IMG/VR virus record: IMGVR_UViG_3300046370_000598
Span: 10,958-74,957 of that record
Source: a virus
Reading direction: 5' to 3' (one strand)
DNA length: 64,000 bases
In this document: in pieces, positions 10,379 through 53,438 of the stretch
Position numbering within the stretch: position 1 is the stretch's first letter
Layout of the letters: each line of letters starts with the position of its first letter
The notes under the pieces: model-generated
Seen by the model: only the letters and a program-made list of their open reading frames with translations
Told to the model about the DNA's origin: nothing
Database searches by the model: none
Made by a program: the position numbers and the translations under genes

Positions 10379-10761
10379 ATAAATATATAGCATTAGGTAA
10401 TTTAACTAAAGACCCATCACTCAAGACAACTAAAAATGACAATGCAGTTTGCGAGTTTTCTATAGCAATAAATAACAAAGTTAACAATTCAGTATTTTAT
10501 ATCGACGTTGAGACTTGGGGAGCAGTAGCAAATAACTGTAATAGATTTTTATCTAAAGGCAGAAAAGTACTAATTGAAGGTAGACTAGCTTCTAGTTCCT
10601 GGCGAAATAAAGAAGGGGAAAATAGAACTAAAATATACTGCAATGCGGAAAGAGTAACTTTCTTAGATAAAACAGAAGCAGATCAGTCCCAAAAAACAGA
10701 TAGCGTTAGTAAAACTGCGGAAAAAATAATTGAAGACGAATTCGCGGATATACCTTTTTAA
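10375..10761 (+). CDS. ssb: Single-stranded DNA-binding protein
   Basis: GNLTKDP, KGRKVLIEGRL, C-terminal FADIPF. Confidence 0.9.
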   Translation: MNKYIALGNLTKDPSLKTTKNDNAVCEFSIAINNKVNNSVFYIDVETWGAVANNCNRFLSKGRKVLIEGRLASSSWRNKEGENRTKIYCNAERVTFLDKTEADQSQKTDSVSKTAEKIIEDEFADIPF

Positions 10762-11816
10762 TGAAAGACTTAATATTTAAAGGCCCGCTCAATTCACTTT
10801 CCTTTGGGAATGTATCTTATAACTTATTATATGCAATGTTTAAGAAAGGTATGAATGTATCCATCTTTCCATCCGGTAAAATAGATATTAGCGCATTCGA
10901 TAAAATATCAGAAGATTTTAAAAAATGGCTTGAAGTATCCTCAAACGGAAGATATAAAGATATTGATAAGGATATGACAACCTTGCAGTTATGGCACTTA
11001 AATGGGGCAGAAAATAGAATAACATCCAAACAAATACTATATACTTTTTACGAATTAAATAAACCCACAGATACAGAAAAAAGCTTAGCTTCATTACAAG
11101 ACCAAACTGTATTCAGCAGTTCTTACGCTTCTTCTCAATTTAAAAACTCTAGTTACTCTCCATTAGGTTTCGATCAAACCCTAAACAAAACAGGTAAATC
11201 GTATATGCCAAATAAAATACATTTCGGCTTAATGGGTAAATTTGAAAAAAGAAAACATACAGAAAAGATTATAAAGTGTTGGCTTAAAAAATATGGCAAC
11301 AATTATGACTACCAACTGACATGCTGTATAACGAATCCCTTCTTCGAGAAAAATCAAATGGAGACATGCATATCTAATATCTTAGAGGGAAAAAGATATG
11401 GCAATATAAACTTTCTACCTTTTCTACCACATAATAGTCAAGTTAATGATTTTTTAAATTCAATTGATATTGATCTTGGAGGAATGAGTGGTGCCGAAGG
11501 CTGGAACCTACCATCCTTTAATGCAACCTGCTTAGGAAAATGGAGCGTTGTTTTAAATGCAACAAGCCACAAAGATTGGGCAAACTCCAAGAATAGCATT
11601 CTTGTAGAGCCTAATGGGAGAGAGCCTGTATATGATAATATCTTTTTTAATGAAAACTCTCATTTCAATCAAGGTGAAATATTTACTTTTGATGATGATG
11701 AATTTATATCCGCAATGGAAAAAGCTGAAACAAAATGTAAAATAAATAATTCTGAAGGAGAAAAGTTAAAAACAAAATTTACCTACGAAAATACTTTAGA
11801 TAAAATATTAGAATAA
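10761..11816 (+). CDS. GT4-like glycosyltransferase
   Basis: GKFEKRK, SGAEGWNLP motif. Confidence 0.7.
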   Translation: MKDLIFKGPLNSLSFGNVSYNLLYAMFKKGMNVSIFPSGKIDISAFDKISEDFKKWLEVSSNGRYKDIDKDMTTLQLWHLNGAENRITSKQILYTFYELNKPTDTEKSLASLQDQTVFSSSYASSQFKNSSYSPLGFDQTLNKTGKSYMPNKIHFGLMGKFEKRKHTEKIIKCWLKKYGNNYDYQLTCCITNPFFEKNQMETCISNILEGKRYGNINFLPFLPHNSQVNDFLNSIDIDLGGMSGAEGWNLPSFNATCLGKWSVVLNATSHKDWANSKNSILVEPNGREPVYDNIFFNENSHFNQGEIFTFDDDEFISAMEKAETKCKINNSEGEKLKTKFTYENTLDKILE

Positions 11817-20693: not shown

Positions 20694-21953
20694 TTAAATA
20701 GAATTTATGTAAAGTATGTTTCCACTTAATGTAACAGTTACTCCTGGAGTTCCATTATTTCCCTTGGGTCCTTGAGGTCCTTGAGGTCCAGTCGCCCCTG
20801 TAGCTCCTGTGCCTGCAGGGCCCTGAGGTCCAGTCGCCCCCGTATTACCAGTATTACCTTTTGGCCCTTGAGGTCCAGTCGCCCCTGTATTACCAGTATT
20901 ACCTTTTGGCCCTTGAGGTCCTTGAGGTCCTTGAGGTCCTTGAGGTCCAGTTGCTCCAGTTGCTCCAGCATCCCCTTTTGCTCCGTTAGACCCAATAATA
21001 CCATCATTACCTTTGTCTACCATTAATTCCCAGCCAATTCCTGAGTCTGTGGGGTAAGCTCCAATTATTGGATCTGCATTTATATTCTGAGTAGAAATGT
21101 AAACCCTACCTTGATATTTAACCATCTCTCCGGAAGAATAGTTTTGATTAATGTCCCAATCACCTTTCCAGTTATCAGATAACGATCTACCTCCTCCGCC
21201 AATCTCATTCCATTCGCTTCCAGGGTCTGTAGGGTAATGACCCATAACTGGATCAGGATTTATATGACTAGCAGCTATATAAGTTTTTCCTGCGTGCTTA
21301 ACTATATCTCCTGGCTCGTAATTTGAATAAACATCTAAATCTGACTTCCAACTACCGGAAGATCCCCCTAAAGAATCCCAACCCATACCAGGAGATGTGG
21401 GATAGGCAGGCATTGTGGGGTCACCTAAAACATTTCTATTGGCGATATAATTTTTTTCTTGATATCTTACTATTTCTCCAGGCGTATAATTTTGATTAAC
21501 ATCCCAATCGCCCTTCCAAGTACCAGAGCTTGCTCCTCCACCAAGTTCACGCCAATTACTTCCAGGGTCTGTAGGGTAATGACCCATAACTGGGTCGGAA
21601 TTTATACTATCAGAAGCGATATAAGTTTTGCCCGAGTGTTCAACTATATCCCCTGAATTATAATTAGCGTAAACATCTAAATTACCTTTCCAACCACCAG
21701 AGCTTGCTCCGCCACCAAGTTCATCCCAATTACTTCCAGGATCTGTAGGGTAATGACCCACAGCTGGATCAGAGTTTATATTATCAGAGGCTATATAAGT
21801 TTTACCTGCGTACTTAACTATATCACCTTTAGTGTAATTAGAGTAAACATCTAAGTCTCCTTTCCAGCCGGCAGTTTCTTCTTTTATAGCTGCCGCTTTT
21901 CCGTTAACACTTAAGTTTTTAAAATCCGCGTTTTCTACTGAGAATGGTTTCAT
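20694..21953 (-). CDS. Collagen-like fibre protein with five CBM5/12 (ChtBD3)-like repeats
   Basis: 5 x WKGD...Y..GDIV.Y.GK.YIA...PTDPGS.W, followed by a Gly-X-Y tract ([10 protein letters not shown]). Confidence 0.8.
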
Positions 21954-21958
21954 TTTTA

Positions 21959-23752
21959 TTATGATTTAAGTTGTTCGATTTCTTTTTTGAGATCTTCGAT
22001 CATTGTTTGTTGTTCTTTTGTTGCATTAACAAGAGCTGCGATTATAGTTTGAGAATTCAATCCCCATTTGTAATCATCTTCGTCCTTTTCGTTCTTGAAA
22101 GCTTCGCGAGGCGCAGCTTCGGGCATGATTGGGTGAACATCTTGGGCAAAAAATCCAATAGTTGGCTGTTGATCCTCTGGACCCTCTTTCCATGTGTATT
22201 TTTTGGGCTGCACTTGCATTATCTCACTTAATCCATATTCACAATCACCAAGGTCATTTTTTAATCTTTTGTCGGAGCTTGTGGTTAATTGCTTTGAAGA
22301 ATTAGTAACAACATCTGAACTTGCAGCTAAACTACTTAAATATACTGCGCCTTCTCCGTTTACTTCCATTAAAGCAGTTCCATTTGTATGAGTGCTATTA
22401 TTAGACCTAATAGTAAAAACCTTAATACTAGAGTTATTATTTATGCAAGATACTGTAACACCCTGATTTCCGCTTGTTGTATTATTAGAATTATGAAGCC
22501 AAGCAACAGGAACACCGGGAGTTGATGATTTAATGACATTTAATGCATTAGTAGGATTCGTAGTACCAATACCTACGTTGCCGCTGGAGTCGATGCGCAT
22601 ACGCTCATTAAATGAGGCAGTTCCACCAGAACCAAACATTGTGTGAAATTGAATATTACCATCGCGATTATCAACGGAACTAAAATCTGAATCTTTACCG
22701 AATCTTATTTTTGCAACTGCATTATCACCTCCGCCAGAATTTCTTACCCGAGCTTGGATAGATACAGATTGATTAGTCTCACCAACTCCATAATCATAAT
22801 TACTTAAAACTAAAGCTAGAGATTCACCATTCGCAACTGAGTTGTCAAAAATATGTAAATTACCATCAGGATTCGGAGTACCAATACCTACGTTGCCGCT
22901 ACCAGTCCCACTGTTAAAGATAAATTTATCTCTTGAATTAAGTGTGAGTGTATCATTTGAATGCTTGTAGATAATAGATCCAGCTCCATTATCATCTGCG
23001 TCTCCAAATCTCAATTGAGTTTGACCTGCAGATAAAAACTGAATTCCAGTATTTGAAGAATCTTCTATAGTTACACTAGTATTGCTGTTTGTTGAACCAC
23101 CTGTTAATACTCCCTGTTGAATATGTAATTTATTAGAAGGATTCGTAGTACCAATACCTACGTTGCCAGATGTGTCTATGCTAAGCCTAGTATCCACACC
23201 TTCTCTAATTGTAAAAGCGCTATTTGAAACAATTTCCCAAGTATTAGTTGCGTCACTCAGGGCAAGTGAACAATGGTCAGCATCATATATGTGTAAACAT
23301 TTATTAACTGAGTTTGGAGATGTAGGATTCGTAGTACCAATACCTACGTTGCCGTCGGAGGCAATACGCATTCTCTCCAACGAAGAGCCTGTATTCCTAT
23401 CTATAAAACGAAATGTACCACCGCTAAACCAGAACTGGTCACCTCGCATTTGGATACCCCCATTAACATCAAGCGATAAATCCGGACTCGTAGTACCAAT
23501 ACCTACATTACCTGCGGAAGAAATAAATAAATCTGGATTAGTAATCCCTATCGCTCCTGAAGTACTAACCCCAAAACCTCCACCTGAATGACCAAAATAA
23601 ACATTTCCATCATTAGCTCCAGAACCTGATCTTTGCAATCTTATCGAATCATTACTGCTTTGCTTTAAATGAAGTAATCCATCACTAGGATTTTCTTCGC
23701 CGATTCCGACGTTTTCTGTAAAAATTGCTTTTTTTGCTTTTAGTTTTTTCAT
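21959..23752 (-). CDS. Tail fibre with [10 protein letters not shown] modules and S74 chaperone
   Basis: Repeated GNVGIGT; SSDKRLK; GFFAQDV. Confidence 0.85.
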
Positions 23753-26700
23753 ATTATTTATTTTCTAAAGTTTCGATTCGAGCTTTAAGATCTTCGATTA
23801 TTGTTTGTTGTTCTTGGATTGCTTTGGTTAAAAGAGGTACAAGTTTACTTTGGTCTATACCTTGATAGTCAGGCACTTGCCTTGTTCCCATTTCAGCTTC
23901 AGTAATAACATTACCATCATTATCTAATTCTGCTGGCGCAATTTCGTACTCTTCTTCTCTAACAGCATCCTTTTCTCCGGAAATAGCTTCTGGCACAACT
24001 TCTTGAACTTCATGAGCCAAGAATCCATCAACAATTTTTTCTGGATCTGTTATAAAATTAAACCTACAAGGTTTAAGCTTATTAACTCTTTCTATTGCAT
24101 TATCAACTTCGACAACATTTTCTTTTAATCTGTAGTCTGAGCTAGTATTGTATGATGTAGTAGTACCACCTGCCTCTATAGTGCCGACAATACCGTTAGC
24201 GTTATAAAAAGCTAAATGTGTTCTCTCTGCAGTCCCAGGTCTTACAGTTTTAATACACGAATCCGAGGTACTCTCTGTTTGCCACACATCTAACCGACTC
24301 GCAGTAGGATTCGTAGTGCCAATACCTACGTTGCCGTTATCAATGATCGACATGTGACGTCTCCAACTCCGAACATTACCAGAAGATGTGGAACCTGATC
24401 TTTCTATATGAAGATCACCATTTCCAAAATTGATACGTGAGGCACCCACCGGTGCTGTCGCTTTACCTTGTTCATCATAATGCGTCCCGACGATTTGTCC
24501 TTGCAGTATGAGATTGCCATGACTATTACGCGGATCTTTGCCCAACATGATCGCTGGTGAATACGATGCAGCATTGGGTCTGGTTATGTCTAGAGCAGTT
24601 TGAGGATTCGTAGTACCAATACCTACGTTGCCGCTTGCTTCGATACGCATTTTTTCAACGGGCTCCGTAGTACCAACTGCTCCTGTTGAAAACGATAAGC
24701 TACCATCATCCCGAAAGGTTATATCGGATATCCCTGCTGTATTATCATCAGTCTGATATGCAGGGACATCTCTATTGTAATTATTAGCTAAACTTATGGA
24801 CGTACTATCTCCTGAACCCATCCTTGCAATTCTAAAATAACTTTCAACATTATTGTTGTGTGCTATTGCTACAAAAGATCTTGTATTAGAATGACCTCCA
24901 TAACCTGTTGTAACTAATTTTCCTTGACTAGGATTCGTAGTACCAATACCCAAGTTACCGCTGGAGTCGATGCGCATTCTCTCATTCAAGTTTGAATAAA
25001 AGCTCATATTATTACTTGCCACATTGTAACGTATTTGCCCAGCAGCATTTGCACTGCCAGTTTCACTATCAGTTCCAAAAAACAATCGACAGTCACCTGT
25101 ATCGTTAGAGAGTTGTAAAATTGGACCAACGCCGCTTGTTGCACTATGCATATGTAGACTGCCAATAGGATTCGTAGTACCAATACCTACATTGCCGGTG
25201 GAGTGGATGCGCATTTTTTCATCACTAGCGTCCTGACCATCAATTTTGAACGAAATTATGCTTGTTGCACCATTACCATTATAGTCAGAGACTAACTCTA
25301 AACTATTCTCAGACATAAATCTTCTATTAGAAATTATCTGACCATTCACCTCTAACTCAGCACTAGGATTCGTAGTACCAATACCAACATTACCTGTGAA
25401 GAACCCGTTTTCTGTTCTGAAATCTTTCATACTATTTGTTTTCTAAAGTTTGCGTGCGATCAATCAGATCATCGATTATGGATTGTTGTGATTCGTTTTG
25501 AGATTTCAAGTCTTCGATCATTGTTTGTTGTTCTTGGATTGCTTTGGTGAGAACAGGAATCAAAGCTCCCATGCGAATACTTTTTCTATTCACGACTTCA
25601 CCATCATCAGAGGAGATATTGTGATCACTTACTAGACCCGGAAAAACTTCTTCCAGTTCTTGAGCTATAAAACCAATTTTCTTTTCTCCAACCTTTTCGG
25701 GGTGAAATTCAGAAATCCATTCAAAATTACGAACTTTTAGTCTTTTAATATCTTCCAGTTTGGAAGTTGCGTCTTGAATATTAGTCTTTAAACGTTCATC
25801 TGAAGACAGAAAGCCTGAATCACTTGTCCACACGTCACCGTCACTATAAACTCGCATGCGTGTAGCTGTGGCATCAGTGCATCTAATAAAATCCATATGT
25901 GTTTGGTCAGGAGATGAATTTAGATATCTAATATGTAATCCATGTGGACCTGTAGCTCCTGTAGTCCCACTTGAAGTATTTGTTATTTCAGCCGCAAAAT
26001 TACCGTCACGGTCATCCGATACGTGCAATTTATAAGCAGGATTCGTAGTACCAATACCTACGTTGCCGCTCGACTTAATACGCATCCTTTCAGCGGGCGT
26101 AGAAAGATTACTACCTGTGTAAAATAACAAATGATGAGAACCATCCTCAGTATGATCCTCTCTAAATCCACCGATAGATGCCTTCCCATGTGCAAATAAT
26201 ATTCTTGTTCCCTGATAATTAGTTGGAATATATCGACTGAGGTATAATGAGTCAACCCAATCAGGGTTAGCAGCTGTTCCCGCGGCGGCTGTAGAACTAT
26301 CATACAGATGTAATTGACGAGAAGGATTCGTAGTACCAATACCTACGTTGCCGCTGGAGTTGATACGCATTCTTTCAAGCTCATCTGTTCCATCATCAGA
26401 TATGAAGTGAAATGAGCTATGGTTGTTACTTGCGGATAAAAATGCCATGGATGAACCGCCGCCCGAAATCTGACTATACTGAGTACTCGGAGCTAGGTCA
26501 CGGGATATTCTAAACTGAGAGCCCGCTGGCCCATTCACTTCTAAGGCTACACCAGGATTCGTAGTACCAATACCTACGTTGCCGTTTGAACGTATCGTTA
26601 ATCTAGCATCTGTACCGTCGCTAATTCTAAGGGATGCAAGAGAACCTTCGCTACTAGTAAAAATTTCGTAAGGGCCATTACTGTAACCGCTTCCCATACC

Positions 26701-27615
26701 GAGAGTAATTCCACTAGTCTCCATTCCGGTTCCGCCACCAACGACCAATACAGAGTCTCTATTGTGTACGGAAACAGGATTCGTAGTACCAATACCTACG
26801 TTGCCGCTGGAGTCGATAGTCATATGGGGCGAATCTACTTCGTATCCAGATCTGCCAGCAGCAAAATGTAAATCTTGGCTACCGTTAGTGGATGAGGCTT
26901 TACCCCATATACCTACGAAATGATCTTCTACCCCATCTGCGTCAGAATTGGCGATTAGTAACGAACCGCAAATATCACCTACATTCACAGATGAACCGCT
27001 TCTATGTGCAACTATATCACCACCTGTTGCGGAAGAAACGACAAGTGCTGTTCCAAGTTGCAAACCTGTTAAACCAGGATTCGTAGTACCAATACCTACG
27101 TTGCCGCCATTGATACCAAACTTACCTGCATTTATAGATAACGTTATTGCATTATCACTCGCGTCTGTTAATTTAATTGCGTTATTTAATGTAGTATTAC
27201 TACCGTTTAAAGTTAAACCGACTTGTGATGCCGCGACATAATCCACTTGCAACTTCGCACTAGGATTCGTAGTACCAATACCTACGTTGCCTGCCACGAT
27301 AGACATGTCTTCATTAAATGATGTATTATTTCTAGTAAAAAAGCCTATTCTTCCTTTGCTATTCAAGGCATCATGCGTAACGCCTCTTATAGATGAAAAA
27401 GTTTTAGCCAAAGGATCTGCACCATCTGCATCATTGCCGATAAAATTAATAATACCATGAGCATCTTCATCTGCAGGGGTAGAGGAATCTTGTATCAACG
27501 CAATCTCTGCGCCACCTGCACCATCCCTGGTTGATTTTAGCCTGAGTAAATCATTATCACCTTCAATATGTAATTTCGCAAGTGTTGGATTCGTAGTACC
27601 AATACCTACGTTGCC
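22554..27615 (-). repeat. 17 dispersed direct copies of a 29-bp repeat GGCAACGTAGGTATTGGTACTACGAATCC
   Basis: + strand starts at 22554, 22869, 23139, 23325, 23484, 24307, 24604, 24931, 25168, 25366, 26039, 26324, 26555, 26777, 27077, 27263, 27587. 11 identical, 3 with 1 mismatch, 3 with 3 mismatches. Confidence 0.95.
23754..25430 (-). CDS. Tail fibre with [10 protein letters not shown] modules and S74 chaperone
   Basis: TSSDYRLKENV, GFLAHEVQ, QGIDQSKLVPLL. Confidence 0.88.
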   Translation of the reverse strand: MKDFRTENGFFTGNVGIGTTNPSAELEVNGQIISNRRFMSENSLELVSDYNGNGATSIISFKIDGQDASDEKMRIHSTGNVGIGTTNPIGSLHMHSATSGVGPILQLSNDTGDCRLFFGTDSETGSANAAGQIRYNVASNNMSFYSNLNERMRIDSSGNLGIGTTNPSQGKLVTTGYGGHSNTRSFVAIAHNNNVESYFRIARMGSGDSTSISLANNYNRDVPAYQTDDNTAGISDITFRDDGSLSFSTGAVGTTEPVEKMRIEASGNVGIGTTNPQTALDITRPNAASYSPAIMLGKDPRNSHGNLILQGQIVGTHYDEQGKATAPVGASRINFGNGDLHIERSGSTSSGNVRSWRRHMSIIDNGNVGIGTTNPTASRLDVWQTESTSDSCIKTVRPGTAERTHLAFYNANGIVGTIEAGGTTTSYNTSSDYRLKENVVEVDNAIERVNKLKPCRFNFITDPEKIVDGFLAHEVQEVVPEAISGEKDAVREEEYEIAPAELDNDGNVITEAEMGTRQVPDYQGIDQSKLVPLLTKAIQEQQTIIEDLKARIETLENK

Positions 27616-30138
27616 CGAATTATAACTCAAGTTATTAGACCCATCTTGATCCCAGTAAGAAGAGGAAGATGAAGAGGTTTCTCCGCCAAAAACTGTATGA
27701 ATAGTATAATTTGAATTTGGTATATTATCTAAAAATACAGCGTGATAACCTGTAGCGCTGACTCCGGAAACAGCATAGGGAATTATATCTCCATCCCCAT
27801 CAATTTCTAGAGTTGTTGCTACTTTTGGCGTTTGAGAAAACGGTCCAAAAGCAATTGGGTGAGTTAAAGACCCTGAAGGAATATTAGTTTCAAAAGAAGC
27901 TGGAGCTTCGCCTGTTGAACTTCCTCCACCTCCCACAAAATTAGAAGCTTCTAAAGTTCCACTGATGACAACATCACCTAATACATTAAGATTATTTTCG
28001 ATACCCACATCCCCTAAATCGTAACTTATATTGTTTGTAGGATCTTGAGTCCAATGAGAGGTATGTCCACCAAAAACTGTATGCAATATATAATCAGAAG
28101 TTGGAATCGCTGTAGAAAATACAGCATGATAACCTGTGGTACTTACTCCGGAAACAGTATAAGGAATTATATCTCCATCTCCATCAATTTCTAAAGTAGT
28201 TGCGATTTTTGGTGTTTCTGAAAATGGTCCAAAAGTAATTGGATAACTTGAAGATCCTAGGGGAATATTAGTTTCAAAAGACGGTGGAACTTGACCTGTA
28301 GAACTTCCTCCGCCTCCTACAAAATTAGAAGCCTCTAAACTTCCGCTAATAACAACATTTCGACCGATAATTACATCTCCATCATTATAAAAAATATCTC
28401 CAGCATTACCAGTATCCCATAATACATCTTTTCCTCCAAAAACAGTATGTATTTTATAATTGTTATTAGGAATTGTTTGAGCAAAAATTAAACTATAACC
28501 GCTTGTAGTTACGCCAGATATACTATATGGAATAATAGATCCATCACCATCAATTTCTAAGTCTGTAGCGATTTTAGGTGGAGAGCTATAAATATCTGCA
28601 AAATTGATTATTTGTACAGATTCTCCAGAAACTAAACTGTTAATCATAGCTTCTGGAGCATTGACTGTTGATTGTTGGGAGCCGGGATTAGTTCCTGCGA
28701 TCCATTTATTGCCGTCCCATTTTATAATATCATTAATCGATACTGGTTGGGAACCTCCAATAGATCCATTTTGATCAAAAGAAAAAGTTGATCCTATATT
28801 TAAAGAAGAGCTAATATTAACGGTTCCATCAACATCTAATGCGGAGCTTGGATTACTTTTATTGATTCCAACATTTCCTTGGTTATAATAAATTTCTCCA
28901 GCTTCAGAACCTTCTTGCCATTTGCCTAGATTATTTGAAGAAATTCCAGTTAAAACAGAATTTCCGCTAACAAATAAACCTTGACTAAAATTACCTATGC
29001 CATCTACGTCTAAAGCTGAGTTTGGATTACTTTTATTGACCCCGACATTTCCTTGATCATAATAAATTTCTCCAGCTTCAGAACCTTCTTGCCATTGGTC
29101 TGAACCATTAACAACTCCAGTTAAAACAGAATTTCCACTAACAAATAGGCCTTGACTAAAATTACCACTTCCAAATACATCAAAATCATACCCTGGGTTA
29201 TCAGTATTAATTCCAACTTTACCAGAATTATAGTATATTTCTTCGTAAGCATAAATGGTAATTGTTCCAGTCATATTTGATGGGTGACTGGTGCAATAAT
29301 ATGTATAAATTCCAGCGGATACAGGAGAAAAAGTTGTTACTCCAGAACTCTCAACAGCAACATCATTTCCATTAGAGTCTTTTATTGCTAATGTATGACC
29401 TCCACCAACATTATTAAAAATTAAAGTTTCACCCGTAAAAGCAATTAAATTCGGATCTTTGCCAGTTTGATCTCCAGAAAAATTGTAATCTAGGCCATCC
29501 CCAGATATATCAAAATTATAAACCTTATCAGAAGTCCCTGAACCAGAATTCCATTTACCTAAATTACTAGATGCAGAAGTTATAACTTCTGAACCTCCAA
29601 CATATAAACTGTTAAAATTACCACTACCATTGACGTCTAAATCGTATCCAGGGGAACTTTGATGAACTCCAATTTTCCCAGCTTTTATAGTTAAGCCATT
29701 ATCCGAATCGTCAAATAAACTTAATCCATCTGAATCTAAAGCAGTGATTTTGTCTGTAGAAATTTTCTTTCCATTTGCAGTGTAAAAGTTTTCGCTGGAA
29801 GTCCAAGCTTGAGTGCTATTAATCCAATTTATACTTTTATTGGTTAATCCATGTAAAGTAATTCCCCCGCCATTAGCTTCTAAATCTGTAGTTGAACCTA
29901 CACCAAGTTCAATATTTTTATCATCAACCTGTATAGTAGTACTATTAACTGTAGTGAAATTACCCTTAACAGTCAAATCTCCATCTATTTGGGTATCACC
30001 CGTAACATGCAAATAAGATTCGGGTAAAGTTGTACCTACTCCAAACTTACCGCCGCTTATACCTATAACAATTTCATTTTCAGTTTCAACGAAAGAATTA
30101 TCACCACTTTTAATTAAATATACTTGATTTTGGTCCAT
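25432..30138 (-). CDS. Long tail fibre: cupredoxin-like domain, 3 lectin-like repeats, 7 [10 protein letters not shown] modules, S74 chaperone
   Basis: H...YYCTSHPSNM; 3 x PKIATxLEIDGDG..IPY.VSGV; SSDERLK; GFIAQELE. Confidence 0.85.
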   Translation of the reverse strand: MDQNQVYLIKSGDNSFVETENEIVIGISGGKFGVGTTLPESYLHVTGDTQIDGDLTVKGNFTTVNSTTIQVDDKNIELGVGSTTDLEANGGGITLHGLTNKSINWINSTQAWTSSENFYTANGKKISTDKITALDSDGLSLFDDSDNGLTIKAGKIGVHQSSPGYDLDVNGSGNFNSLYVGGSEVITSASSNLGKWNSGSGTSDKVYNFDISGDGLDYNFSGDQTGKDPNLIAFTGETLIFNNVGGGHTLAIKDSNGNDVAVESSGVTTFSPVSAGIYTYYCTSHPSNMTGTITIYAYEEIYYNSGKVGINTDNPGYDFDVFGSGNFSQGLFVSGNSVLTGVVNGSDQWQEGSEAGEIYYDQGNVGVNKSNPNSALDVDGIGNFSQGLFVSGNSVLTGISSNNLGKWQEGSEAGEIYYNQGNVGINKSNPSSALDVDGTVNISSSLNIGSTFSFDQNGSIGGSQPVSINDIIKWDGNKWIAGTNPGSQQSTVNAPEAMINSLVSGESVQIINFADIYSSPPKIATDLEIDGDGSIIPYSISGVTTSGYSLIFAQTIPNNNYKIHTVFGGKDVLWDTGNAGDIFYNDGDVIIGRNVVISGSLEASNFVGGGGSSTGQVPPSFETNIPLGSSSYPITFGPFSETPKIATTLEIDGDGDIIPYTVSGVSTTGYHAVFSTAIPTSDYILHTVFGGHTSHWTQDPTNNISYDLGDVGIENNLNVLGDVVISGTLEASNFVGGGGSSTGEAPASFETNIPSGSLTHPIAFGPFSQTPKVATTLEIDGDGDIIPYAVSGVSATGYHAVFLDNIPNSNYTIHTVFGGETSSSSSSYWDQDGSNNLSYNSGNVGIGTTNPTLAKLHIEGDNDLLRLKSTRDGAGGAEIALIQDSSTPADEDAHGIINFIGNDADGADPLAKTFSSIRGVTHDALNSKGRIGFFTRNNTSFNEDMSIVAGNVGIGTTNPSAKLQVDYVAASQVGLTLNGSNTTLNNAIKLTDASDNAITLSINAGKFGINGGNVGIGTTNPGLTGLQLGTALVVSSATGGDIVAHRSGSSVNVGDICGSLLIANSDADGVEDHFVGIWGKASSTNGSQDLHFAAGRSGYEVDSPHMTIDSSGNVGIGTTNPVSVHNRDSVLVVGGGTGMETSGITLGMGSGYSNGPYEIFTSSEGSLASLRISDGTDARLTIRSNGNVGIGTTNPGVALEVNGPAGSQFRISRDLAPSTQYSQISGGGSSMAFLSASNNHSSFHFISDDGTDELERMRINSSGNVGIGTTNPSRQLHLYDSSTAAAGTAANPDWVDSLYLSRYIPTNYQGTRILFAHGKASIGGFREDHTEDGSHHLLFYTGSNLSTPAERMRIKSSGNVGIGTTNPAYKLHVSDDRDGNFAAEITNTSSGTTGATGPHGLHIRYLNSSPDQTHMDFIRCTDATATRMRVYSDGDVWTSDSGFLSSDERLKTNIQDATSKLEDIKRLKVRNFEWISEFHPEKVGEKKIGFIAQELEEVFPGLVSDHNISSDDGEVVNRKSIRMGALIPVLTKAIQEQQTMIEDLKSQNESQQSIIDDLIDRTQTLENK

Positions 30139-30178
30139 TTTATTATTTATAATTTATATTTTATACACCCCTCGTTAC

Positions 30179-32443
30179 TCAACTAGAAACAAAATAGTTC
30201 ATGAATATTTTTTTTAATTCATACGGATAAGCCATAAAATGAATAATAAATGTATCCTCGTCTACCATTCTAGGTTCTGTATTAAACTCATTCATTGGAA
30301 ATATTTTCCTATTGAAACCAAATCCATCGCTCTTTTTTAATATATCGCACAATATCCCTTGATCGCCGCCGCTTGCATATAAACTACTTTTATCACAATC
30401 TACATGCATCCATTTTTTTATTATGTTTTTTGTATAATTATGATTTCTAAAAATGACAACTCCACTATTAAGCATCATACCTTTGGCAATTTTTTTGTTG
30501 TTCGCACCGACATCTTCACATGCAATAATTTTTTTTATGACAGTGCATTTAGCGAGTATATCTTCGAAACGTTTTTGTGGATTGTATATGATTGTATCTG
30601 AATCCATCCATACAATCACTTCGTGATCATCAAAGTGATTGAGAATTGCGCGCGCTTTTGACCAATTAGCTGAACCGCCATCGTCAAGTTTTTCTCTATA
30701 AACATAAAATGTATAGCCATTTGCCAAACAATAATCTCGCACGCTCATCTCGGAACATATCGCATAATCTGCAATTTCAGGAGTGTACAAACTAACAATC
30801 GCAATTTTCTTTCCTGAATTATAAACTGTAAATTTTTCTTTTGGTATTTGTATTTGGTTTAAATGTTTGCTTATGTATTTAAGGTAATCGCGGTCAACTA
30901 AGCTATACCATTCATTTTTTAATTTTAAAAATTCTTTGTGTTTTTGCGGATTAACCGTTACCTTTTTTGGTGCATCAGTTTTCGCGGCAATTGTGTTTGA
31001 TATTTTTTGCTTCAATTGTTTTTTGTATTCGGTCCACCAAGATTGTACTTTTTTGGAATGATCGATTATCCATTGTGAATCTTCAAGAAGCATGTTGATA
31101 TCATTTGATATATTGTTCCAAGATTCAGTTTCAATGAGCGGATGCTCGCCAAGTAGGTTGCCCCAATAATCATCCTTTTCAACAATTGGAATTGATCCCA
31201 CTTCTAGCGCTTCGTACAATCTAAAAGTGTCAACGCTTGTGTTTCCACGAGGACATGGTACGAAAGTTGATTGCTTTAATATTTTTTTATATTCTTCAGT
31301 ACTCAAACAATCGCCCGATTGCCAACCCTCGGCTACATGAAGATGATATTCGCCATTGCATTTTTCCAATGAATCAATCATTTTTTCGCGATCACCTTGA
31401 CTATGAATCTGGCCCGCGAAACACCAAGTATATTTTTTATCTAATGAACTCATTTTACTTTCTAATAAATAAGGATTATCTATGTAAAAAAAAGTGTTAT
31501 CCACATCCTCTACTCCAGCAAAGACTTTGATTTTATTATTTTCTTTTATAATTGATGAGCAATAATATTCAAGAGGAATGTCTTTTAATAATGTTTTAGT
31601 TATGTTTGTAATTTTTCCATCAATCAAATCAAAAGAAACAAAATATTTATTGTATGCCCATGCAATTTTTTTATCAGACTTAAAATCCTTTAACCTTTCT
31701 TGACATAACATACAGTATCTATTTTCGCCAATTTTAATAGGGCATGTAGAATTATGCATTAATGGTTTTTGATTCAACTGAATTGAGTTAAAAGATAAAC
31801 CCTCCAACAACTTAGATGAACTATATACAAGTGGATCAATAGAATAGATGCAATAAAAATCATCTTTATCCTTAAATATCATCCAATTTTTTTGAGGAAT
31901 ATTTAATTTTTCTTGATTTAATGTTTTTACAAAATCGATTTCTCCGGAATTTAAATTCACCCAGCAAATTCCAGGCTCACAACGCCAAGAAAAACCTAAA
32001 GGTTTTTTTTCATTCCACGAACCATCTTCTTTTTTTTTGCCAGAGAAAACAAGTATCTCGCTAAATACAGAACAACATGCCAGACAAAAAATAGATCCAT
32101 TTCTCTCTTCAATGGAATTTTCCACAAATCTAAGATCTTCTATTTTATGTTTATTAGTTCGATCCAAATCTACCATTCTAGAGGTAAAGTATGAATAATT
32201 TTTAAAATTAAATTTACATTCTTTTTTCTGTCCTGAATTTTTAACCAAAATATAGCTGGCGGCACTTCTGTAAAAATCTACACTTATTCCATGAGACGAG
32301 ACGCAATGTGCAGGAGTATTCTGGGGATAATCAGCTTGCCTATATAAAATATATTCATCTCCATTGCATTTTATAGCAGAAGGGTTGATCTCACACTGTA
32401 TACTGTTAGACTTAGTCATGAATACACTTGTTCTTTGAATCAA
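30179..32443 (-). CDS. Multidomain glycan enzyme: propeller-like N-domain, exostosin (GT47) C-half, GT34
   Basis: CPRGNTSVDTFRLYEALEVGSIP (GT47); WSKARAI...WMDSD...LNSGV...DQG (GT34). Confidence 0.7.
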   Translation of the reverse strand: MIQRTSVFMTKSNSIQCEINPSAIKCNGDEYILYRQADYPQNTPAHCVSSHGISVDFYRSAASYILVKNSGQKKECKFNFKNYSYFTSRMVDLDRTNKHKIEDLRFVENSIEERNGSIFCLACCSVFSEILVFSGKKKEDGSWNEKKPLGFSWRCEPGICWVNLNSGEIDFVKTLNQEKLNIPQKNWMIFKDKDDFYCIYSIDPLVYSSSKLLEGLSFNSIQLNQKPLMHNSTCPIKIGENRYCMLCQERLKDFKSDKKIAWAYNKYFVSFDLIDGKITNITKTLLKDIPLEYYCSSIIKENNKIKVFAGVEDVDNTFFYIDNPYLLESKMSSLDKKYTWCFAGQIHSQGDREKMIDSLEKCNGEYHLHVAEGWQSGDCLSTEEYKKILKQSTFVPCPRGNTSVDTFRLYEALEVGSIPIVEKDDYWGNLLGEHPLIETESWNNISNDINMLLEDSQWIIDHSKKVQSWWTEYKKQLKQKISNTIAAKTDAPKKVTVNPQKHKEFLKLKNEWYSLVDRDYLKYISKHLNQIQIPKEKFTVYNSGKKIAIVSLYTPEIADYAICSEMSVRDYCLANGYTFYVYREKLDDGGSANWSKARAILNHFDDHEVIVWMDSDTIIYNPQKRFEDILAKCTVIKKIIACEDVGANNKKIAKGMMLNSGVVIFRNHNYTKNIIKKWMHVDCDKSSLYASGGDQGILCDILKKSDGFGFNRKIFPMNEFNTEPRMVDEDTFIIHFMAYPYELKKIFMNYFVSS

Positions 32444-33149
32444 AAACCCGGAAACCGAGTTCTATTGCTCTATTAGTTAATAACATTTCGTTAATTATCG
32501 CTTTTGCTTTATTTTTAAATAAAATTTCATCTGACTCCGGATTAAAAGCGCTATGCCAATACTTCGATAGCCATAAATAAATATGCCGCTTTAGCCCACT
32601 ACTTATTTCCTTCGATGACATAAAAAGTTTGAAATCCTGAGTAATTTCATTTACATTAAAAAGATCCGTGTTATCGACATTCAATAACTTGAAAATTTCG
32701 CTTGACCCAATAAAGCAATTACTGCAAATCCAGCTACTCAAATCTCGTTCATTAAAAAATAATTCCGAGGAAATTAACGATCGGTCTATTTTTCCTATTA
32801 GCAGGTTATGTTTTTTTGATAAATAAAACACATCCTTAAGTTTATCATCATCTAGCAAAGTTTTTCCATAAGATTTTAAGGAGTCATTCACAAAGAGCAT
32901 TACATCGGGACTTATATTTTTCTTAACATAATCCAATCCCTTCTGCCAACCAGAGAACTCCCAGTTTTTGTTATTTCCAGCAATAATGTGAAAAGCCCCA
33001 AATACTTCTTTCTCTTTTTTTTCCATAAGATTATCTACAATGACATATTCTGTATGTAGGTTTGTTTTATTTAACTGTCCCACTATATAAGGTAAAGAGT
33101 GTGGGTATTTCTTGGTGTCATACTGAACATAAATAACCGCGATTTTCAT
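32412..33149 (-). CDS. Glycosyltransferase-like hypothetical protein
   Basis: VDN...GNN..WEFSGWQKG...FVNDS (rhamnan-synthesis-like). Confidence 0.5.
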   Translation of the reverse strand: MKIAVIYVQYDTKKYPHSLPYIVGQLNKTNLHTEYVIVDNLMEKKEKEVFGAFHIIAGNNKNWEFSGWQKGLDYVKKNISPDVMLFVNDSLKSYGKTLLDDDKLKDVFYLSKKHNLLIGKIDRSLISSELFFNERDLSSWICSNCFIGSSEIFKLLNVDNTDLFNVNEITQDFKLFMSSKEISSGLKRHIYLWLSKYWHSAFNPESDEILFKNKAKAIINEMLLTNRAIELGFRVFDSKNKCIHD

Positions 33150-35851
33150 GTTTTAAATCCCTTCTTGTATCCCAATGGAATAAATGTTACATTGTCTGCT
33201 ATAGCATCTTTTCTATAATATTGTCGAAACACATGTTTAAAGTTTTTGTAATGATCAATTTCGGCGTGACAATGTTCGTCACTCAAATGAACCAATATAC
33301 AATTTTTATTTTTTAATTTTTCAAAATATTGATTTTGTTTTGTGCGCAATTGACTTAGGTTTTCGCGGAATTTTTCTGGATATGTATTTATGTTTTTCGC
33401 ATACATATCACTATATACAATCACACTATTCTCTTCTATAATATTCATATCTTCATTGATAACAACATCAAAATCATCAAACAACTCACATATAAAATCC
33501 TGCTCAAATAAATTTTTGTGTGTGAATATTAATTTTTGTTTTTTTGTTTTTTGTGAAACATGAAATGCTTGAGTTTGCGCATTCCAATGAACAATATTTT
33601 CTGCATTATAAAAATCTGCTTTATCCTTTTCAAACGTTTGTGGATTAAATTGTTTGTCGATGTTTCTGTATAATGTGTGATATTCTGGACCAATTTCGCG
33701 GAAAGTTTCAAGATATTCGCAAGCCTCAATTTGTTTTCTTATATCATTAAAATACTCTGGATTGTTGCCGCGATCAACAATCTTTGCGCCTAAAATTTCA
33801 CACACCGATTGCATGTAAGAATATACAGCCAAGAAAAACAAAGACTTTCCTTGTTTTCTGTAGTTTAAATTGTTTGCTATTGCTCGACCTATGATTGGGT
33901 TTTTCGCGCAAGTCAAAATAAAGTCTTGAGAGAAATCTACATCTTGAAAAGTTGGTAAAACACATGATGTTTTATGATTAACAATTTCAGATATTGGAGT
34001 ATCAATGTATCTATCAATATCAACATACAACCCACCCTCCTTGTATGTTTTTAATAGTCTCCACAAATCTATTTTTTCGGTATTTTTTCTGTCTTTTATT
34101 AAATTCCAATTGTCGCGACCAATTGAATCGCGCAGTAATCGATTGACGTCCTCGTCATCATAAATCTGAACGTCCCAATCTGGATTCAGTAGCTCTAGGT
34201 TTTTCGCGCCTTTTCGAATAAGTTCGTAGTTTGAATCAAGTACATTTTTATTTTTCCAAGATAGATGAATTTTTTTGGGTATTTGTTTACTGTATATTTT
34301 AGCGAGCAATGGAAACTCAATCATCTCATACTCTTGTTTAATTTGAAACTTTTCTTCCGCAAATCTTAAATCTGATTTTTTATCTATTTCTGTATTATCA
34401 TTTTCTTCGTGCAATTGATAGCTCATAAGAGGATTGAGATGATATATGCTTTCTGGCTTCGCAAACAATTTATTTTCATTAAAAAAGTTTTGCATAAAAT
34501 TGTCAAGAGGCTCATCCATTCCAAACTGTTCAACCCATTGACATAGTAAACTAGCAGCAGTTTTATGCAAAATGTACGAACTTGCATTCATATGCCAAAA
34601 ATGATCGTTTTTAGTAAAAAAATCATTTCTTTTTATTCTGCAAAAATAATCATTATATCGCTCAAGAACCTCTGTGTAGCGTGGTTTATTCCATGGCTGG
34701 CAACCACCAAGATAAATTATCGAATAGTCGCTTGGTATTTGTTTGCTAAATACTTGATTCCAGAAATTCACAAAACCATCTTTAAATACTGCATCATCTT
34801 CTAATATCAAATAGTTCGTAGCGTTCTTGTCTTGCACCAATTTTTCCCACAGTCTATAATGACTTAATGCACAACAGATTTCTGCTTTACTTCTAGATTC
34901 CCAAGTTTTTGGAAATAATTTTTTAACTTCATTGTTTAGTTCTATTTTCTTTGCATCGATTGCACTGACTCTTTGAGTTGAAAATTCTGTATTTTTATAC
35001 ATATGAAATAATCTATCTAAACGCCGATCAAGATTAATGAAATAACTTTTTGAAATTTTCTCCAACTCTCGGTTCATATACATTTCTTTTTTAGTTCCAA
35101 CAAAGTCACTTAAAGAACCGTCGGCCCTTTGCATTAAAAACATAAAATTATTTATCTTACCATGTGAGACATTATCTTTTTTTAATTTACTTAACAAATA
35201 TTTTTCTGCGTGATAATATTCTGGTTTATTTTTTATGTCAGAATATCTTGTGCAATATGAATTTAATGCTTTTTTATTTTTAATAATAGCAAATCTATCA
35301 TTTATTCCACCAAACCAACCATAATCAATTTGCGGACAAACATTATAATACGGAGTAAATAAATCTTCATTAGATTTTAAACATTCTAAAGATAATGGAT
35401 GAGTAAAAAATAAATCGCCTCTAGAAAGTATAAAATAATCATAATCATCAATTCTATCTGCAAATGAATTAATAAAATACTCTAAAGAATAAATTTGTTT
35501 TAATGATTTTCTTATAGAATCTAAAGCATCTCCATCCCCCCATGCTTCTCCAAATTTAATTACTTCTTTTGCCAGATCACATATATTTTCTTCTTTATTC
35601 CTTAAATCTTGATCGTAAAAAATCTCCTTAAATTTAAAATACTTTTGAATACTTTTATGATTTATGGGTGTCGGCTCAAGCTCCGCGTCAGCTTGTCTGG
35701 AATTAAAATAAAAAGAAGACTTACTAGTAACCAAAAAATAATCTACTTCATTACCCTCGATTTGCTTTTTTACATTCTCTTCGAAAGAAAAGTATTGTTT
35801 TTCGTCAAAATTTTTAACTTGTCCAAAAAAAACAAAAGCTACCTTACTCAT
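33146..35851 (-). CDS. Multidomain glycosyltransferase: GT-like N-domain, GT25, GT32, exostosin N-half
   Basis: YFINLDRRLDR/CALSH/ILEDD (GT25); IPKKIH/DLWR/GGLYVDID (GT32); HLSDE...FRQY...IPLGY. Confidence 0.75.
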   Translation of the reverse strand: MSKVAFVFFGQVKNFDEKQYFSFEENVKKQIEGNEVDYFLVTSKSSFYFNSRQADAELEPTPINHKSIQKYFKFKEIFYDQDLRNKEENICDLAKEVIKFGEAWGDGDALDSIRKSLKQIYSLEYFINSFADRIDDYDYFILSRGDLFFTHPLSLECLKSNEDLFTPYYNVCPQIDYGWFGGINDRFAIIKNKKALNSYCTRYSDIKNKPEYYHAEKYLLSKLKKDNVSHGKINNFMFLMQRADGSLSDFVGTKKEMYMNRELEKISKSYFINLDRRLDRLFHMYKNTEFSTQRVSAIDAKKIELNNEVKKLFPKTWESRSKAEICCALSHYRLWEKLVQDKNATNYLILEDDAVFKDGFVNFWNQVFSKQIPSDYSIIYLGGCQPWNKPRYTEVLERYNDYFCRIKRNDFFTKNDHFWHMNASSYILHKTAASLLCQWVEQFGMDEPLDNFMQNFFNENKLFAKPESIYHLNPLMSYQLHEENDNTEIDKKSDLRFAEEKFQIKQEYEMIEFPLLAKIYSKQIPKKIHLSWKNKNVLDSNYELIRKGAKNLELLNPDWDVQIYDDEDVNRLLRDSIGRDNWNLIKDRKNTEKIDLWRLLKTYKEGGLYVDIDRYIDTPISEIVNHKTSCVLPTFQDVDFSQDFILTCAKNPIIGRAIANNLNYRKQGKSLFFLAVYSYMQSVCEILGAKIVDRGNNPEYFNDIRKQIEACEYLETFREIGPEYHTLYRNIDKQFNPQTFEKDKADFYNAENIVHWNAQTQAFHVSQKTKKQKLIFTHKNLFEQDFICELFDDFDVVINEDMNIIEENSVIVYSDMYAKNINTYPEKFRENLSQLRTKQNQYFEKLKNKNCILVHLSDEHCHAEIDHYKNFKHVFRQYYRKDAIADNVTFIPLGYKKGFKT

Positions 35852-43007: not shown

Positions 43008-43340
43008 GTGAAAAAATTAAACAAGAGGGAATGTATAAAAAGGATGGTGATCGAGCCTACAACTCAAAAACGCATGTTTTGGGCTAGGGAAATGAAAATG
43101 CTTAACGAACTCATAGGTAAATTTCCAAATTTAGATTTCTGGAGAAGAGCTTCGTTTCAAAAAGTCCCCTCTCTGTCTCACTTTAAATCAAGATATGGAT
43201 TAGAAAAAATATCTAAAATGTACAGAGAGTTTAATTACATCATACCTCCAAAAAAAGATATAATACTTGGAGAAAAAACTGGAAAAGATAAAATATTATC
43301 GAAAAAACCAAAAACAATTAGACAATTTATAGATGAGTAA
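43008..43340 (+). CDS. Hypothetical basic protein
   Basis: 110-aa ORF overlapping the recA start. Confidence 0.55.
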   Translation: MKKLNKRECIKRMVIEPTTQKRMFWAREMKMLNELIGKFPNLDFWRRASFQKVPSLSHFKSRYGLEKISKMYREFNYIIPPKKDIILGEKTGKDKILSKKPKTIRQFIDE

Positions 43341-44439
43341 AACAAAAGAAATAAATACTACCGATCAAATAGCCAAATTTCTTGGCGACAAAGACAATAA
43401 GAAATACCACTACAACTTCCATAATAGCGAAGATTACAAGATTTCCAGTGGTAGTCTAAATTTAGATATAGCGCTAGGTGGAGGCTTGCCAAGCGGAGCA
43501 CATAGATTTACCGGCATTAATGAAGGGGGCAAAACTAGCTGCGCTATGGCTTTTGCAAGAAATTTTCAAAAGCATTTCAAGAAAAATGGAATGATAATCT
43601 ACATTAAAAGTGAAGGAAGGTTTAGTTCAGAAATGATTGAGAGGTCAGGTATAGATACTGATCCAGAAAAATTTTTTGTTTTCGATTGCAATATTTTCGA
43701 AAAAGTCTTTGAGCTGATAAGAGAATTAGTTTTCAATAATGAAGATGATAAAAAATATATGTTCATTATAGATAGTGTAGATGCTCTTTGTAGGGTTGGA
43801 GATATAGATAAACCGTTTGCGGAGTCTGAGCAAGTTGCAGGTGGAGCTTTAATAACTTCTGTATTTTTAAAGAAAATGGTATTACCAATTACCAAAATGG
43901 GACACACAATGATATTAACTAGCCAAGTAAGGGTGGAGGTAGCAACAAATCCATACGCCTCAAGAGGAGGGCCAAAAGTCAAGCAGGCGGGTGGAAACGC
44001 TATCAAGCATTATGCTAACTTTATCTTAGAGTTCCAGGAAAGGTACAATTCAGATCTTATCTTTAAAAACCCAACTGCATCAAAACTGGAAGACAAGGGT
44101 GAACCAATCGGCCATTATTGTAAAATAAAATTCAGAAAAAGCGTAAATGAAAAAACAGGCTCTACTGCAAGATACCCAATTAAATACGGACAAAAAAATG
44201 GCAAGTCAGTATGGAGAGCGAGGGAAATACTTGACATGTTATATCTGTTCAACCTAATAGAAAAAAAAGGTGCTTGGATATCAGTCTCAGAAGACTTGGT
44301 CTCCGAGCTGAGTAATAAAAAAATAGAAATTAGTGAAAAGTTTCAAGGCGAGCAAAGGCTAATAGATTTTTTAGAAGAAAACGAAGATGCCTCAAAATTT
44401 TTATACGAAGATTTTAAAAAGTTAGTTAATGCGATTTAA
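43333..44439 (+). CDS. recA: RecA/UvsX-like recombinase
   Basis: SSGSLNLDIALGGGLP, Walker A GINEGGKT, IIDSV, GGNAIKHYA. Confidence 0.9.
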   Translation: MSKTKEINTTDQIAKFLGDKDNKKYHYNFHNSEDYKISSGSLNLDIALGGGLPSGAHRFTGINEGGKTSCAMAFARNFQKHFKKNGMIIYIKSEGRFSSEMIERSGIDTDPEKFFVFDCNIFEKVFELIRELVFNNEDDKKYMFIIDSVDALCRVGDIDKPFAESEQVAGGALITSVFLKKMVLPITKMGHTMILTSQVRVEVATNPYASRGGPKVKQAGGNAIKHYANFILEFQERYNSDLIFKNPTASKLEDKGEPIGHYCKIKFRKSVNEKTGSTARYPIKYGQKNGKSVWRAREILDMLYLFNLIEKKGAWISVSEDLVSELSNKKIEISEKFQGEQRLIDFLEENEDASKFLYEDFKKLVNAI

Positions 44440-52804: not shown

Positions 52805-52805
52805 A

Positions 52806-53432: not shown

Positions 53433-53438
53433 TATAAA

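Follow-up and report, generated by a model that had tools for sequence, protein, structure and literature searches.

Why should the tail-fibre genes of a marine virus repeat the same 30 bases, down to their silent positions, between segments of DNA that bear no resemblance to one another? The question is raised by a 64,000-nucleotide stretch of viral DNA (the window), positions 10,958 to 74,957 of the IMG/VR virus record IMGVR_UViG_3300046370_000598, in which three adjacent fibre genes carry 17 copies of such a repeat. We argue that the 30-mer is probably a seam for homologous recombination, set at a structurally neutral joint of the fibre protein. The record (74,957 bp) is estimated to be 51% complete; its guanine-plus-cytosine (GC) content is 33%, a tail-sheath gene suggests a myovirus of roughly 150 kb, and a megablast search against 50,697 phage records found no close cultured relative. 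The three genes are as follows.

25432 to 30138, minus strand: long fibre gene, 1568 amino acids; N-terminal part without the seam, then seven exact seam copies, a terminal module and an S74 chaperone
23754 to 25430, minus strand: short fibre gene, 558 amino acids; five seam copies and an S74 chaperone; sequence matches to PDB entries 8OND and 8OML
21959 to 23752, minus strand: short fibre gene, 597 amino acids; five seam copies and an S74 chaperone

A search with the 29-mer GGCAACGTAGGTATTGGTACTACGAATCC, allowing up to three mismatches, returned 17 matches, of which 11 are exact; every one lies on the minus strand, within 22554–27615. Shuffled sequence returned none. In the order in which the genes are read, the copies are:

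27587 to 27615, minus strand: seam R1, exact
27263 to 27291, minus strand: seam R2, exact
27077 to 27105, minus strand: seam R3, exact; 3′ limit of a stretch common to locus L010
26777 to 26805, minus strand: seam R4, exact
26555 to 26583, minus strand: seam R5, exact
26324 to 26352, minus strand: seam R6, exact
26039 to 26067, minus strand: seam R7, exact
25366 to 25394, minus strand: seam R8, three mismatches; first copy in the 558-amino-acid gene
25168 to 25196, minus strand: seam R9, one mismatch
24931 to 24959, minus strand: seam R10, three mismatches (GNLGIG)
24604 to 24632, minus strand: seam R11, exact
24307 to 24335, minus strand: seam R12, one mismatch
23484 to 23512, minus strand: seam R13, three mismatches; first full copy in the 597-amino-acid gene
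23325 to 23353, minus strand: seam R14, exact
23139 to 23167, minus strand: seam R15, exact
22869 to 22897, minus strand: seam R16, one mismatch
22554 to 22582, minus strand: seam R17, exact

All 17 copies are in frame within the three open reading frames (ORFs), and within a gene they are spaced 159–327 bp apart, every value being divisible by three. A single orientation holds for these copies and for all copies in the 40 related marine loci that were compared (loci are designated below by L numbers), where one gene may hold up to 14. An earlier note on this DNA, made from the letters alone, had described 17 same-orientation copies, 11 identical and seven of these in the 1568-amino-acid gene, with in-frame periods of 159–327 bp; this description stands, and the scan of the rest of the record that it called for found no further copies outside the three fibre genes. 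The 29-bp repeat that it reported is also real, although the conserved block proves to be 30 bp: the proline codon CCT that completes it is present in 86% of the copies examined below. The note had further seen, in the degenerate first copies of the two shorter genes, a polarity reminiscent of CRISPR or integron arrays. Those first copies do carry three mismatches each, and in 38 complete ORFs from the related loci the mean number of mismatches is 2.53 for the first copy of a gene and 1.67 for inner copies (p = 0.01). The decay is mild, however, and is explained by an edge position that joins fewer exchanges, so that no polar mechanism is needed.

To avoid circularity, codon usage was analysed in copies defined by their peptide alone (G.VGIGT..P), of which the 40 loci contain 257 with unique context. 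A single codon dominates each position: GGC (85%), AAC (73%), GTA (84%), GGT (93%) and ATT (96%) at positions 1–5, and GGT (92%), ACT (94%), ACG (95%), AAT (98%) and CCT at positions 6–10. The same amino acid may be spelled differently at different positions of the 30-mer, yet each position is fixed. Three of these codons are seldom used by the genome: GGC accounts for 13–16% of its family, AAC for 17–26% and ACG for 6–7%, and the probability of the seam spelling given the peptide is ∼3e-6. Third-position conservation is 0.83–0.96 inside the 30-mer and falls to 0.38–0.5 immediately beyond it, conserved Leu, Val and Met residues included. The profile is box-shaped, identity being at background level only a few bases past the 30-mer, and upstream of it E-R-M-R-I is conserved as a peptide but varied in its codons. 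An internal control from the long fibre gene shows that the peptide does not dictate the spelling of the DNA:

28849 to 29223, minus strand: three related G(N/K)VG(I/V)N..NP peptides, written with different codons

The fixed synonymous positions, the unexpected GGC, AAC and ACG codons and the divergent codons of these N-terminal peptides had all been remarked on in the earlier note, and each is borne out by the comparison of the repeat with its surroundings.

Beyond the window, 13 other IMG/VR contigs and 26 marine metagenome contigs carry the 29-mer without mismatch, and about 58 IMG/VR contigs match it when four positions are left degenerate; a search of one genome from each of 185,579 bacterial and archaeal species yielded no exact copy. 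Pelagiphage HTVC168P and cyanophages S-PRM1 and S-CBP1 have the seam peptide with variable codons. The cultured Synechococcus phage S-CRES2 (OQ587940.1, complete genome; L049:6907-8313) has a homogenised 30-mer of its own, GGCAACGTTGGTATCGGTACGAGTAATCCT, in seven near-identical copies spelled unlike those of the window and separated by modules that are unrelated at the DNA level; this spelling has no exact match in IMG/VR. Given the free codons of the former phages and the private spelling of the latter, what is kept is identity among copies and not one particular sequence. The conservation of the seam at the level of DNA is new and real.

What does the seam encode? The peptide V-G-I-G-T-T-N-P-x-x-x-L stands at all 17 joints. 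A PDB sequence search matched the 558-amino-acid protein to the Bdellovibrio fibres Bd2133 (8OND, E = 5e-7) and Bd1334 (8OML), in alignments that centre on E-R-M-R-I-x-S-G-N-V/L-G-I/L-G-T-x-x-P-x-x-x-L. Motifs at the edges of trimeric beta-helix segments, with the consensus V-G-G/N-pi-x-x-P-x-x-x-L, have been described as capping loops (Caulton et al. 2024, PMC10769870); the same study reports them to be common to other S74 proteins and gives SDxxxK as the motif of the S74 chaperone. All three fibre proteins contain SDxxxK and end in a Peptidase_S74 domain (PF13884; E = 4e-13, 2e-10 and 9e-14), the sole Pfam family that they match:

25630 to 25803, minus strand: Peptidase_S74 domain of the long fibre, amino acids 1446–1503; motif SDERLK
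23985 to 24140, minus strand: Peptidase_S74 domain of the 558-amino-acid fibre, amino acids 431–482; motif SDYRLK
22115 to 22276, minus strand: Peptidase_S74 domain of the 597-amino-acid fibre, amino acids 493–546; motif SDKRLK

An AlphaFold2 (AF2) monomer of the 558-amino-acid fibre is predicted to be all-beta, with a mean confidence score (pLDDT) of only 64 that is best around the motifs. Its top Foldseek matches, at low TM-scores (a measure of fold similarity), are 8OND, the T5 L-shaped fibre 4UW8, the MyRF domain 7DC3, the K1F chaperone 3GW6 and 8OML. More than 7,000 metagenome proteins match, and cultured pelagiphage and cyanophage fibres have the same build. Most likely, then, each module is one beta-helix segment and the repeat is the loop that closes one segment and opens the next. 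For engineering, the seam would thus show where modules of a fibre may be exchanged while both the reading frame and the fold stay intact. Such a structural role explains the conservation of the peptide; it does not explain that of the DNA.

The modules themselves have little in common. Inter-repeat DNA is as dissimilar as shuffled sequence (0.43–0.61 versus 0.53), and the encoded proteins retain only traces of similarity, among them edge motifs common to the modules (x-K-L-x-V after the repeat and E-R-M-R-I-x-S-S before it). The earlier description of the modules as mutually unrelated is therefore right for DNA and only nearly so for protein. They are also richer in GC than the backbone, as had been suspected, with the excess mostly in codon positions 1 and 2; GC at third codon positions is 0.24–0.30, close to the genome value of 0.25. 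The excess therefore reflects amino-acid content, and we rejected a foreign GC signature.

Of particular interest is where the modules are found in other phages. The baseplate-side backbone of the window (∼30–42 kb) is 65–75% identical in nucleotides to L002, L004, L009 and L010. Among internal modules, that following R14 (23168–23323) is 100% identical to one in L002, that following R10 99% identical to one in L026, that following R16 98.9% identical to one in L041 and that following R2 (27106–27261) 96.7% identical to one in L010. The terminal cassettes, which include the chaperone, behave likewise: the cassette after R17 (21962–22552) is 99% identical to L010, that after R12 96.5% identical to the one ending the long fibre of L002 and that after R7 (25435–26037) 94% identical to L037. 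Each stretch that the window shares with relatives begins 2–11 nt past a seam, and the internal ones stop at the next seam. The R2 module of the long fibre and the R17 module of the 597-amino-acid fibre occur together in one 776-amino-acid ORF of L010. The additional loci L052–L100 supplied a single further partner for the window modules, an 84% match.

Near the 3′ end of each gene lies a second DNA-conserved box, of 25 bp, which is probably the downstream seam for the terminal cassette:

25511 to 25535, minus strand: 25-bp box AAGAACAACAAACAATRATCGAAGA at the 3′ end of the long fibre gene, peptide KEQQTMIED
23791 to 23815, minus strand: 25-bp box AAGAACAACAAACAATRATCGAAGA in the 558-amino-acid gene; the stretch common to L002 ends inside it, at 23793
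21993 to 22017, minus strand: 25-bp box AAGAACAACAAACAATRATCGAAGA in the 597-amino-acid gene

The same pattern holds over all loci. When a shared stretch is defined as at least 120 bp at 90% identity or more (n = 183), 61% of starts and 73% of ends fall at a seam, where random placement would put 13% and 12%. The 255 modules form 178 families at a threshold of 88% identity, and in 32 of the 48 families with several members the neighbours differ on at least one side in different phages. Two adjacent modules stand in the order A-B in L005 and B-A in L037, and a pair that is adjacent in one gene of L037 is 7.4 kb apart, across two genes, in L005. Full-length module pairs are mostly either 95–100% identical or unalignable, which indicates recent transfer rather than slow divergence. 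The expectation that identical modules would turn up in other phages and in other orders, bounded by the same repeat, was thus realised at 94–100% identity. Duplication within a gene is seen as well: in L023 and L040 one gene holds two members of a single family (F4), which follow seams 2 and 5 and are separated by two other modules; the pair is an intragenic duplication bounded by seams.

Closely related loci record single events. Between L029 and L044, which are independent assemblies, there is no mismatch over 884 positions, the one difference being a 216-bp gap that runs exactly from seam to seam; L042 agrees with L029. Two more indels of one module, with flanks at least 97% identical, separate L008 from L011 and L008 from L036. 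As judged from sequence, seam-to-seam indels are the trace that would be expected of unequal crossing-over or single-strand annealing between adjacent seams. Together with the seam-bounded shared stretches and the changed neighbours, they support the proposal of the earlier note that the repeat is a crossover point at which modules are added, deleted or exchanged.

Variation of other kinds also occurs in these genes. L002 and L004, otherwise 99–100% identical, differ by one 162-bp unit in N-terminal tandem repeats (L002:7027-7667); fibre length therefore varies by plain tandem copy number too. Upstream of the array, L029 alone has a 216-bp tandem duplication (L029:9728-10159 versus L044:2996-3174) that is separate from the seam indel.

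How might exchange at the seam work? PHROG and Pfam scans of 40 ORFs outside the fibre genes identified two candidates for a part in recombination and no others:

43333 to 44439, plus strand: UvsX/RecA-like recombinase, candidate catalyst of exchange
47713 to 48789, plus strand: PD-(D/E)XK exonuclease, possible end-processing partner

The 75-kb record (∼51% complete) contains no match to tyrosine (PF00589) or serine (PF00239) recombinases, none to reverse transcriptase (PF00078) and none to the Rad52 family. Of the two enzymes put forward previously, the RecA-like gene was therefore found and the Rad52-like annealase was not; the absence of a site-specific recombinase, until now noted only next to the fibre genes, extends to the whole record.

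From these elements a mechanism can be proposed. The fibre would be a homotrimeric beta-helix shaft with a self-cleaving S74 chaperone at its end, the shaft being a chain of unrelated segments of 50–110 amino acids, each beginning with a capping loop. Since the loop closes one segment and opens the next, any two segments could be joined in frame and still fold. With the spelling fixed, any two joints, whether in one gene, in different genes or in different genomes, would be identical over ∼30 bp, and general homologous recombination could cross over within that identity during co-infection or between paralogous fibre genes, catalysed most plausibly by the UvsX/RecA-like recombinase of the phage with the exonuclease, or by host RecA. 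Two crossovers, or a conversion tract, would replace one module, and one unequal crossover would delete, duplicate or move modules. Exchange between the last seam and the 25-bp 3′ box would carry the terminal binding module along with its chaperone, and such exchanges could alter host range. Repeated exchange and conversion would homogenise the seam, and modules with perfect seams would spread more easily; the uniformity of the seam may thus be a product of its use, possibly helped by selection for exchangeability.

Several observations weigh against this account. Module order is the same in relatives that are 99–100% identical (L002/L004, L024/L035/L043 and L023/L040). Invariant order among close relatives had been named in the earlier note as evidence against shuffling, and on this point the loci are divided, with several groups invariant and indels in L029/L044, L008/L011 and L008/L036. 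Because order is kept in near-identical relatives, exchange must be evolutionary and rare on short time scales; a rapid, programmed switch does not fit. Nor do seams lie nearer to the consensus where a junction has switched than where it is conserved (1.67 versus 1.88 mismatches). At 30 bp the seam is close to the minimum homology needed for efficient recombination, a general figure and not one obtained for this phage, and conversion alone may be insufficient to fix synonymous positions across backbones that have diverged by 25–35%. All of the comparative evidence comes from short-read metagenome assemblies, with no single molecule spanning an array. Parts of the stretch are present in twenty seawater runs, only as k=31 Logan contigs, and these end at every exact copy; at such joints the 36 letters or fewer on one side are the repeat itself, and module order is neither confirmed nor refuted.

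The difficulty of accounting for the fixed spelling by conversion leads to a stronger version of the argument, which we consider possible but rather doubtful: the 30-mer may be a DNA element selected in its own right, a lineage-wide universal in-frame linker through which an entire population of marine phages draws on common modules to build its fibres combinatorially. Selection for exchangeability would maintain it, or else the advantage in spreading that modules gain from perfect seams, and a phage nicking or pairing factor might assist. If this were true, the seam would be nature's enzyme-light version of a cloning standard and would show concretely that evolvability can be selected for.

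A different explanation is that the spelling is fixed for a reason other than recombination, which merely exploits the identity. Rare codons might, for example, slow translation while a segment folds or trimerises, or the repeat might be a feature of the mRNA. Three of the ten codons are indeed rare in this genome, and the motif recurs at every structural segment boundary. Yet codons that are nearly as common as their alternatives are also fixed (GGT versus GGA, ACT versus ACA, ATT versus ATA), cultured phages with the same peptide choose their codons freely, S-CRES2 fixes another spelling, 21900–30200 has no Rfam match, and the repeat shows no significant fold. We regard this explanation as unlikely.

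Still less probable is a role for the repeat as a structured site, in the form of a bulged hairpin or dyad, at which a dedicated site-specific or single-strand recombinase mobilises cassettes in the manner of attC or shufflons. The 29-mer does contain an imperfect dyad, CGTA(G)GTA / TACTACG, and the greater average degeneracy of first copies recalls such arrays. Synonymous stem pairs, however, do not covary (positions 6 and 24 are paired in 219 copies where 212 are expected, positions 9 and 21 in 215 where 208 are expected), and changes at position 9 are uncompensated. The predicted single-stranded DNA fold reaches only −3.2 kcal/mol (z = −1.4), with 17 of 200 shuffled sequences as good, and the seam of S-CRES2 lacks the lower stem. 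All copies, moreover, are direct, in frame and coding, and the 75-kb record, itself ∼51% complete, holds neither a tyrosine or serine recombinase nor a reverse transcriptase.

Related systems were rejected on similar grounds. In a shufflon or other invertible segment inverted repeats would be present, whereas all copies here have one orientation. A diversity-generating retroelement is at odds with the lack of a PF00078 match and with replacement of whole modules rather than adenine-directed substitution. A CRISPR-like array does not fit repeats that form one continuous reading frame with the stretches between them; cas genes were not searched for.

We give equally little credence to the suggestion that the mosaic is an artefact in which assemblers joined different phages at the shared 30-mer. 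Exact 30-bp repeats break k=31 graphs, and all loci are assemblies, some of low coverage (L044 is labelled cov 4.46). Against this, shared modules come from different samples and are mostly 94–99%, not 100%, identical; single modules are bounded on both sides, and the contig does not switch genome past the joint. Module orders are reproduced between independent assemblies (L024/L035/L043, L029/L042 and L002/L004), and the cultured, complete genome of S-CRES2 has the same architecture. Assembly chimeras are thus unlikely as the main cause. Finally, that the modules are young tandem duplicates whose repeats are identical through recent ancestry only, a danger flagged in the earlier note, is barely credible: copy number does vary elsewhere in the genes (the 162-bp unit of L002/L004 and the 216-bp unit of L029/L044), but DNA between the repeats is no more alike than shuffled sequence, the proteins show mere traces of similarity, and a few bases past the 30-mer identity is already at background.

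Other features of the region deserve mention. Directly downstream of the three S74 genes is a fourth fibre-like gene, and the long fibre contains repeats of another kind:

20694 to 21953, minus strand: fibre-like gene, 419 amino acids, with five repeats of ∼50 amino acids and then a collagen-like G-x-x tract; matches tail-fibre PHROGs; without the seam and without an S74 domain
27700 to 28700, in the N-terminal half of the long fibre: tandem domain repeats of a different type (PKIATxLEIDGDG...HTVFGG)

Genes for glycosyltransferases and nucleotide-sugar epimerases are unusually numerous around the fibre and tail genes (2496–4403, 10761–11816, 33146–35851, 48801–51044 and 52034–55423). Their products may serve in virion glycosylation or in modification of the host surface.

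Fibres set the host range of phages, and how they change so fast is a standing question. Here one 30-base seam is placed at every structural joint and is common to dozens of uncultured marine phages, which offers a measurable system for asking whether selection for exchangeability keeps the DNA identical where protein segments join. S-CRES2 could become a laboratory model for the seam. Genes that bear it are also hard to assemble.

We found no published description of such a seam, and the string GNVGIGT appears in no paper of the literature searched. Several known systems nonetheless invite comparison. In integron attC arrays, shufflons, the invertible segments of Mu and P1 and diversity-generating retroelements, as in the window, a repeated DNA element diversifies, or could diversify, a receptor-binding protein. 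Each of those systems depends on its own dedicated enzyme (integrase, Rci, Gin/Cin or reverse transcriptase) and on structured or inverted sites; the seam, in contrast, consists of direct, coding, in-frame repeats, and none of those enzymes or sites was found in the record.

Cassette-based antigenic variation by segmental gene conversion, as in the pilE/pilS minicassettes of Neisseria and in vlsE of Borrelia with its 17-bp direct repeats, is closer in kind. There too, variable coding cassettes lie between short blocks of conserved DNA, which direct the homologous exchange that alters a surface-recognition protein. The bacterial systems draw on silent donors to supply one expression site, within a single cell lineage and at high frequency, whereas all copies of the seam lie in expressed genes, and exchange would take place between genes or co-infecting phages on evolutionary time scales.

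In architecture the fibres are nearest to the mosaic adhesive trimer (MAT) fibres of Bdellovibrio bacteriovorus, the T5 fibre (4UW8) and the K1F endosialidase (3GW6), with which they share the capping-loop motif and would share the trimeric beta-helix segments that such loops bound (PMC10769870). A C-terminal S74 chaperone with SDxxxK, mosaic domain content, and matches in sequence (8OND, E = 5e-7) and fold are further points in common. For MAT fibres it is a protein motif and mosaicism at the level of domains that have been described; that study (PMC10769870) describes no nucleotide-invariant repeat and no breakpoints at one.

The closest functional parallel is with the T-even phages, in which, according to the account available to us, conserved motifs of gp37 and glycine-rich motifs (GRMs) of gp38 separate hypervariable segments (Tetart et al. 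1996, 1998, cited in Trojet et al. 2011, PMC3157838). In that account, as here, conserved glycine-rich structural motifs delimit variable recognition segments, exchange proceeds by general recombination without a site-specific enzyme of its own, and it falls at the motifs, as do the exchanges that we observed. There is no sequence relationship: Peptidase_S74 is the only Pfam family in the window's fibres, and their PDB matches are MAT and T5 fibres, with neither gp37 nor gp38 among them. The seam therefore works like the T-even system without being a member of it. As far as that account goes, gp38 carries five different GRMs in fixed synteny on a monomeric tip, and codon-level invariance is not reported across phages whose backbones differ by 25–35%. 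The seam has one 30-bp spelling, repeated up to 14 times per gene along what is probably a trimeric shaft; in principle, therefore, modules can be joined in every combination and order, in any of several genes. By analogy, then, the mechanism appears to resemble the motif-mediated shuffling of T-even phages, but in a more regular form.

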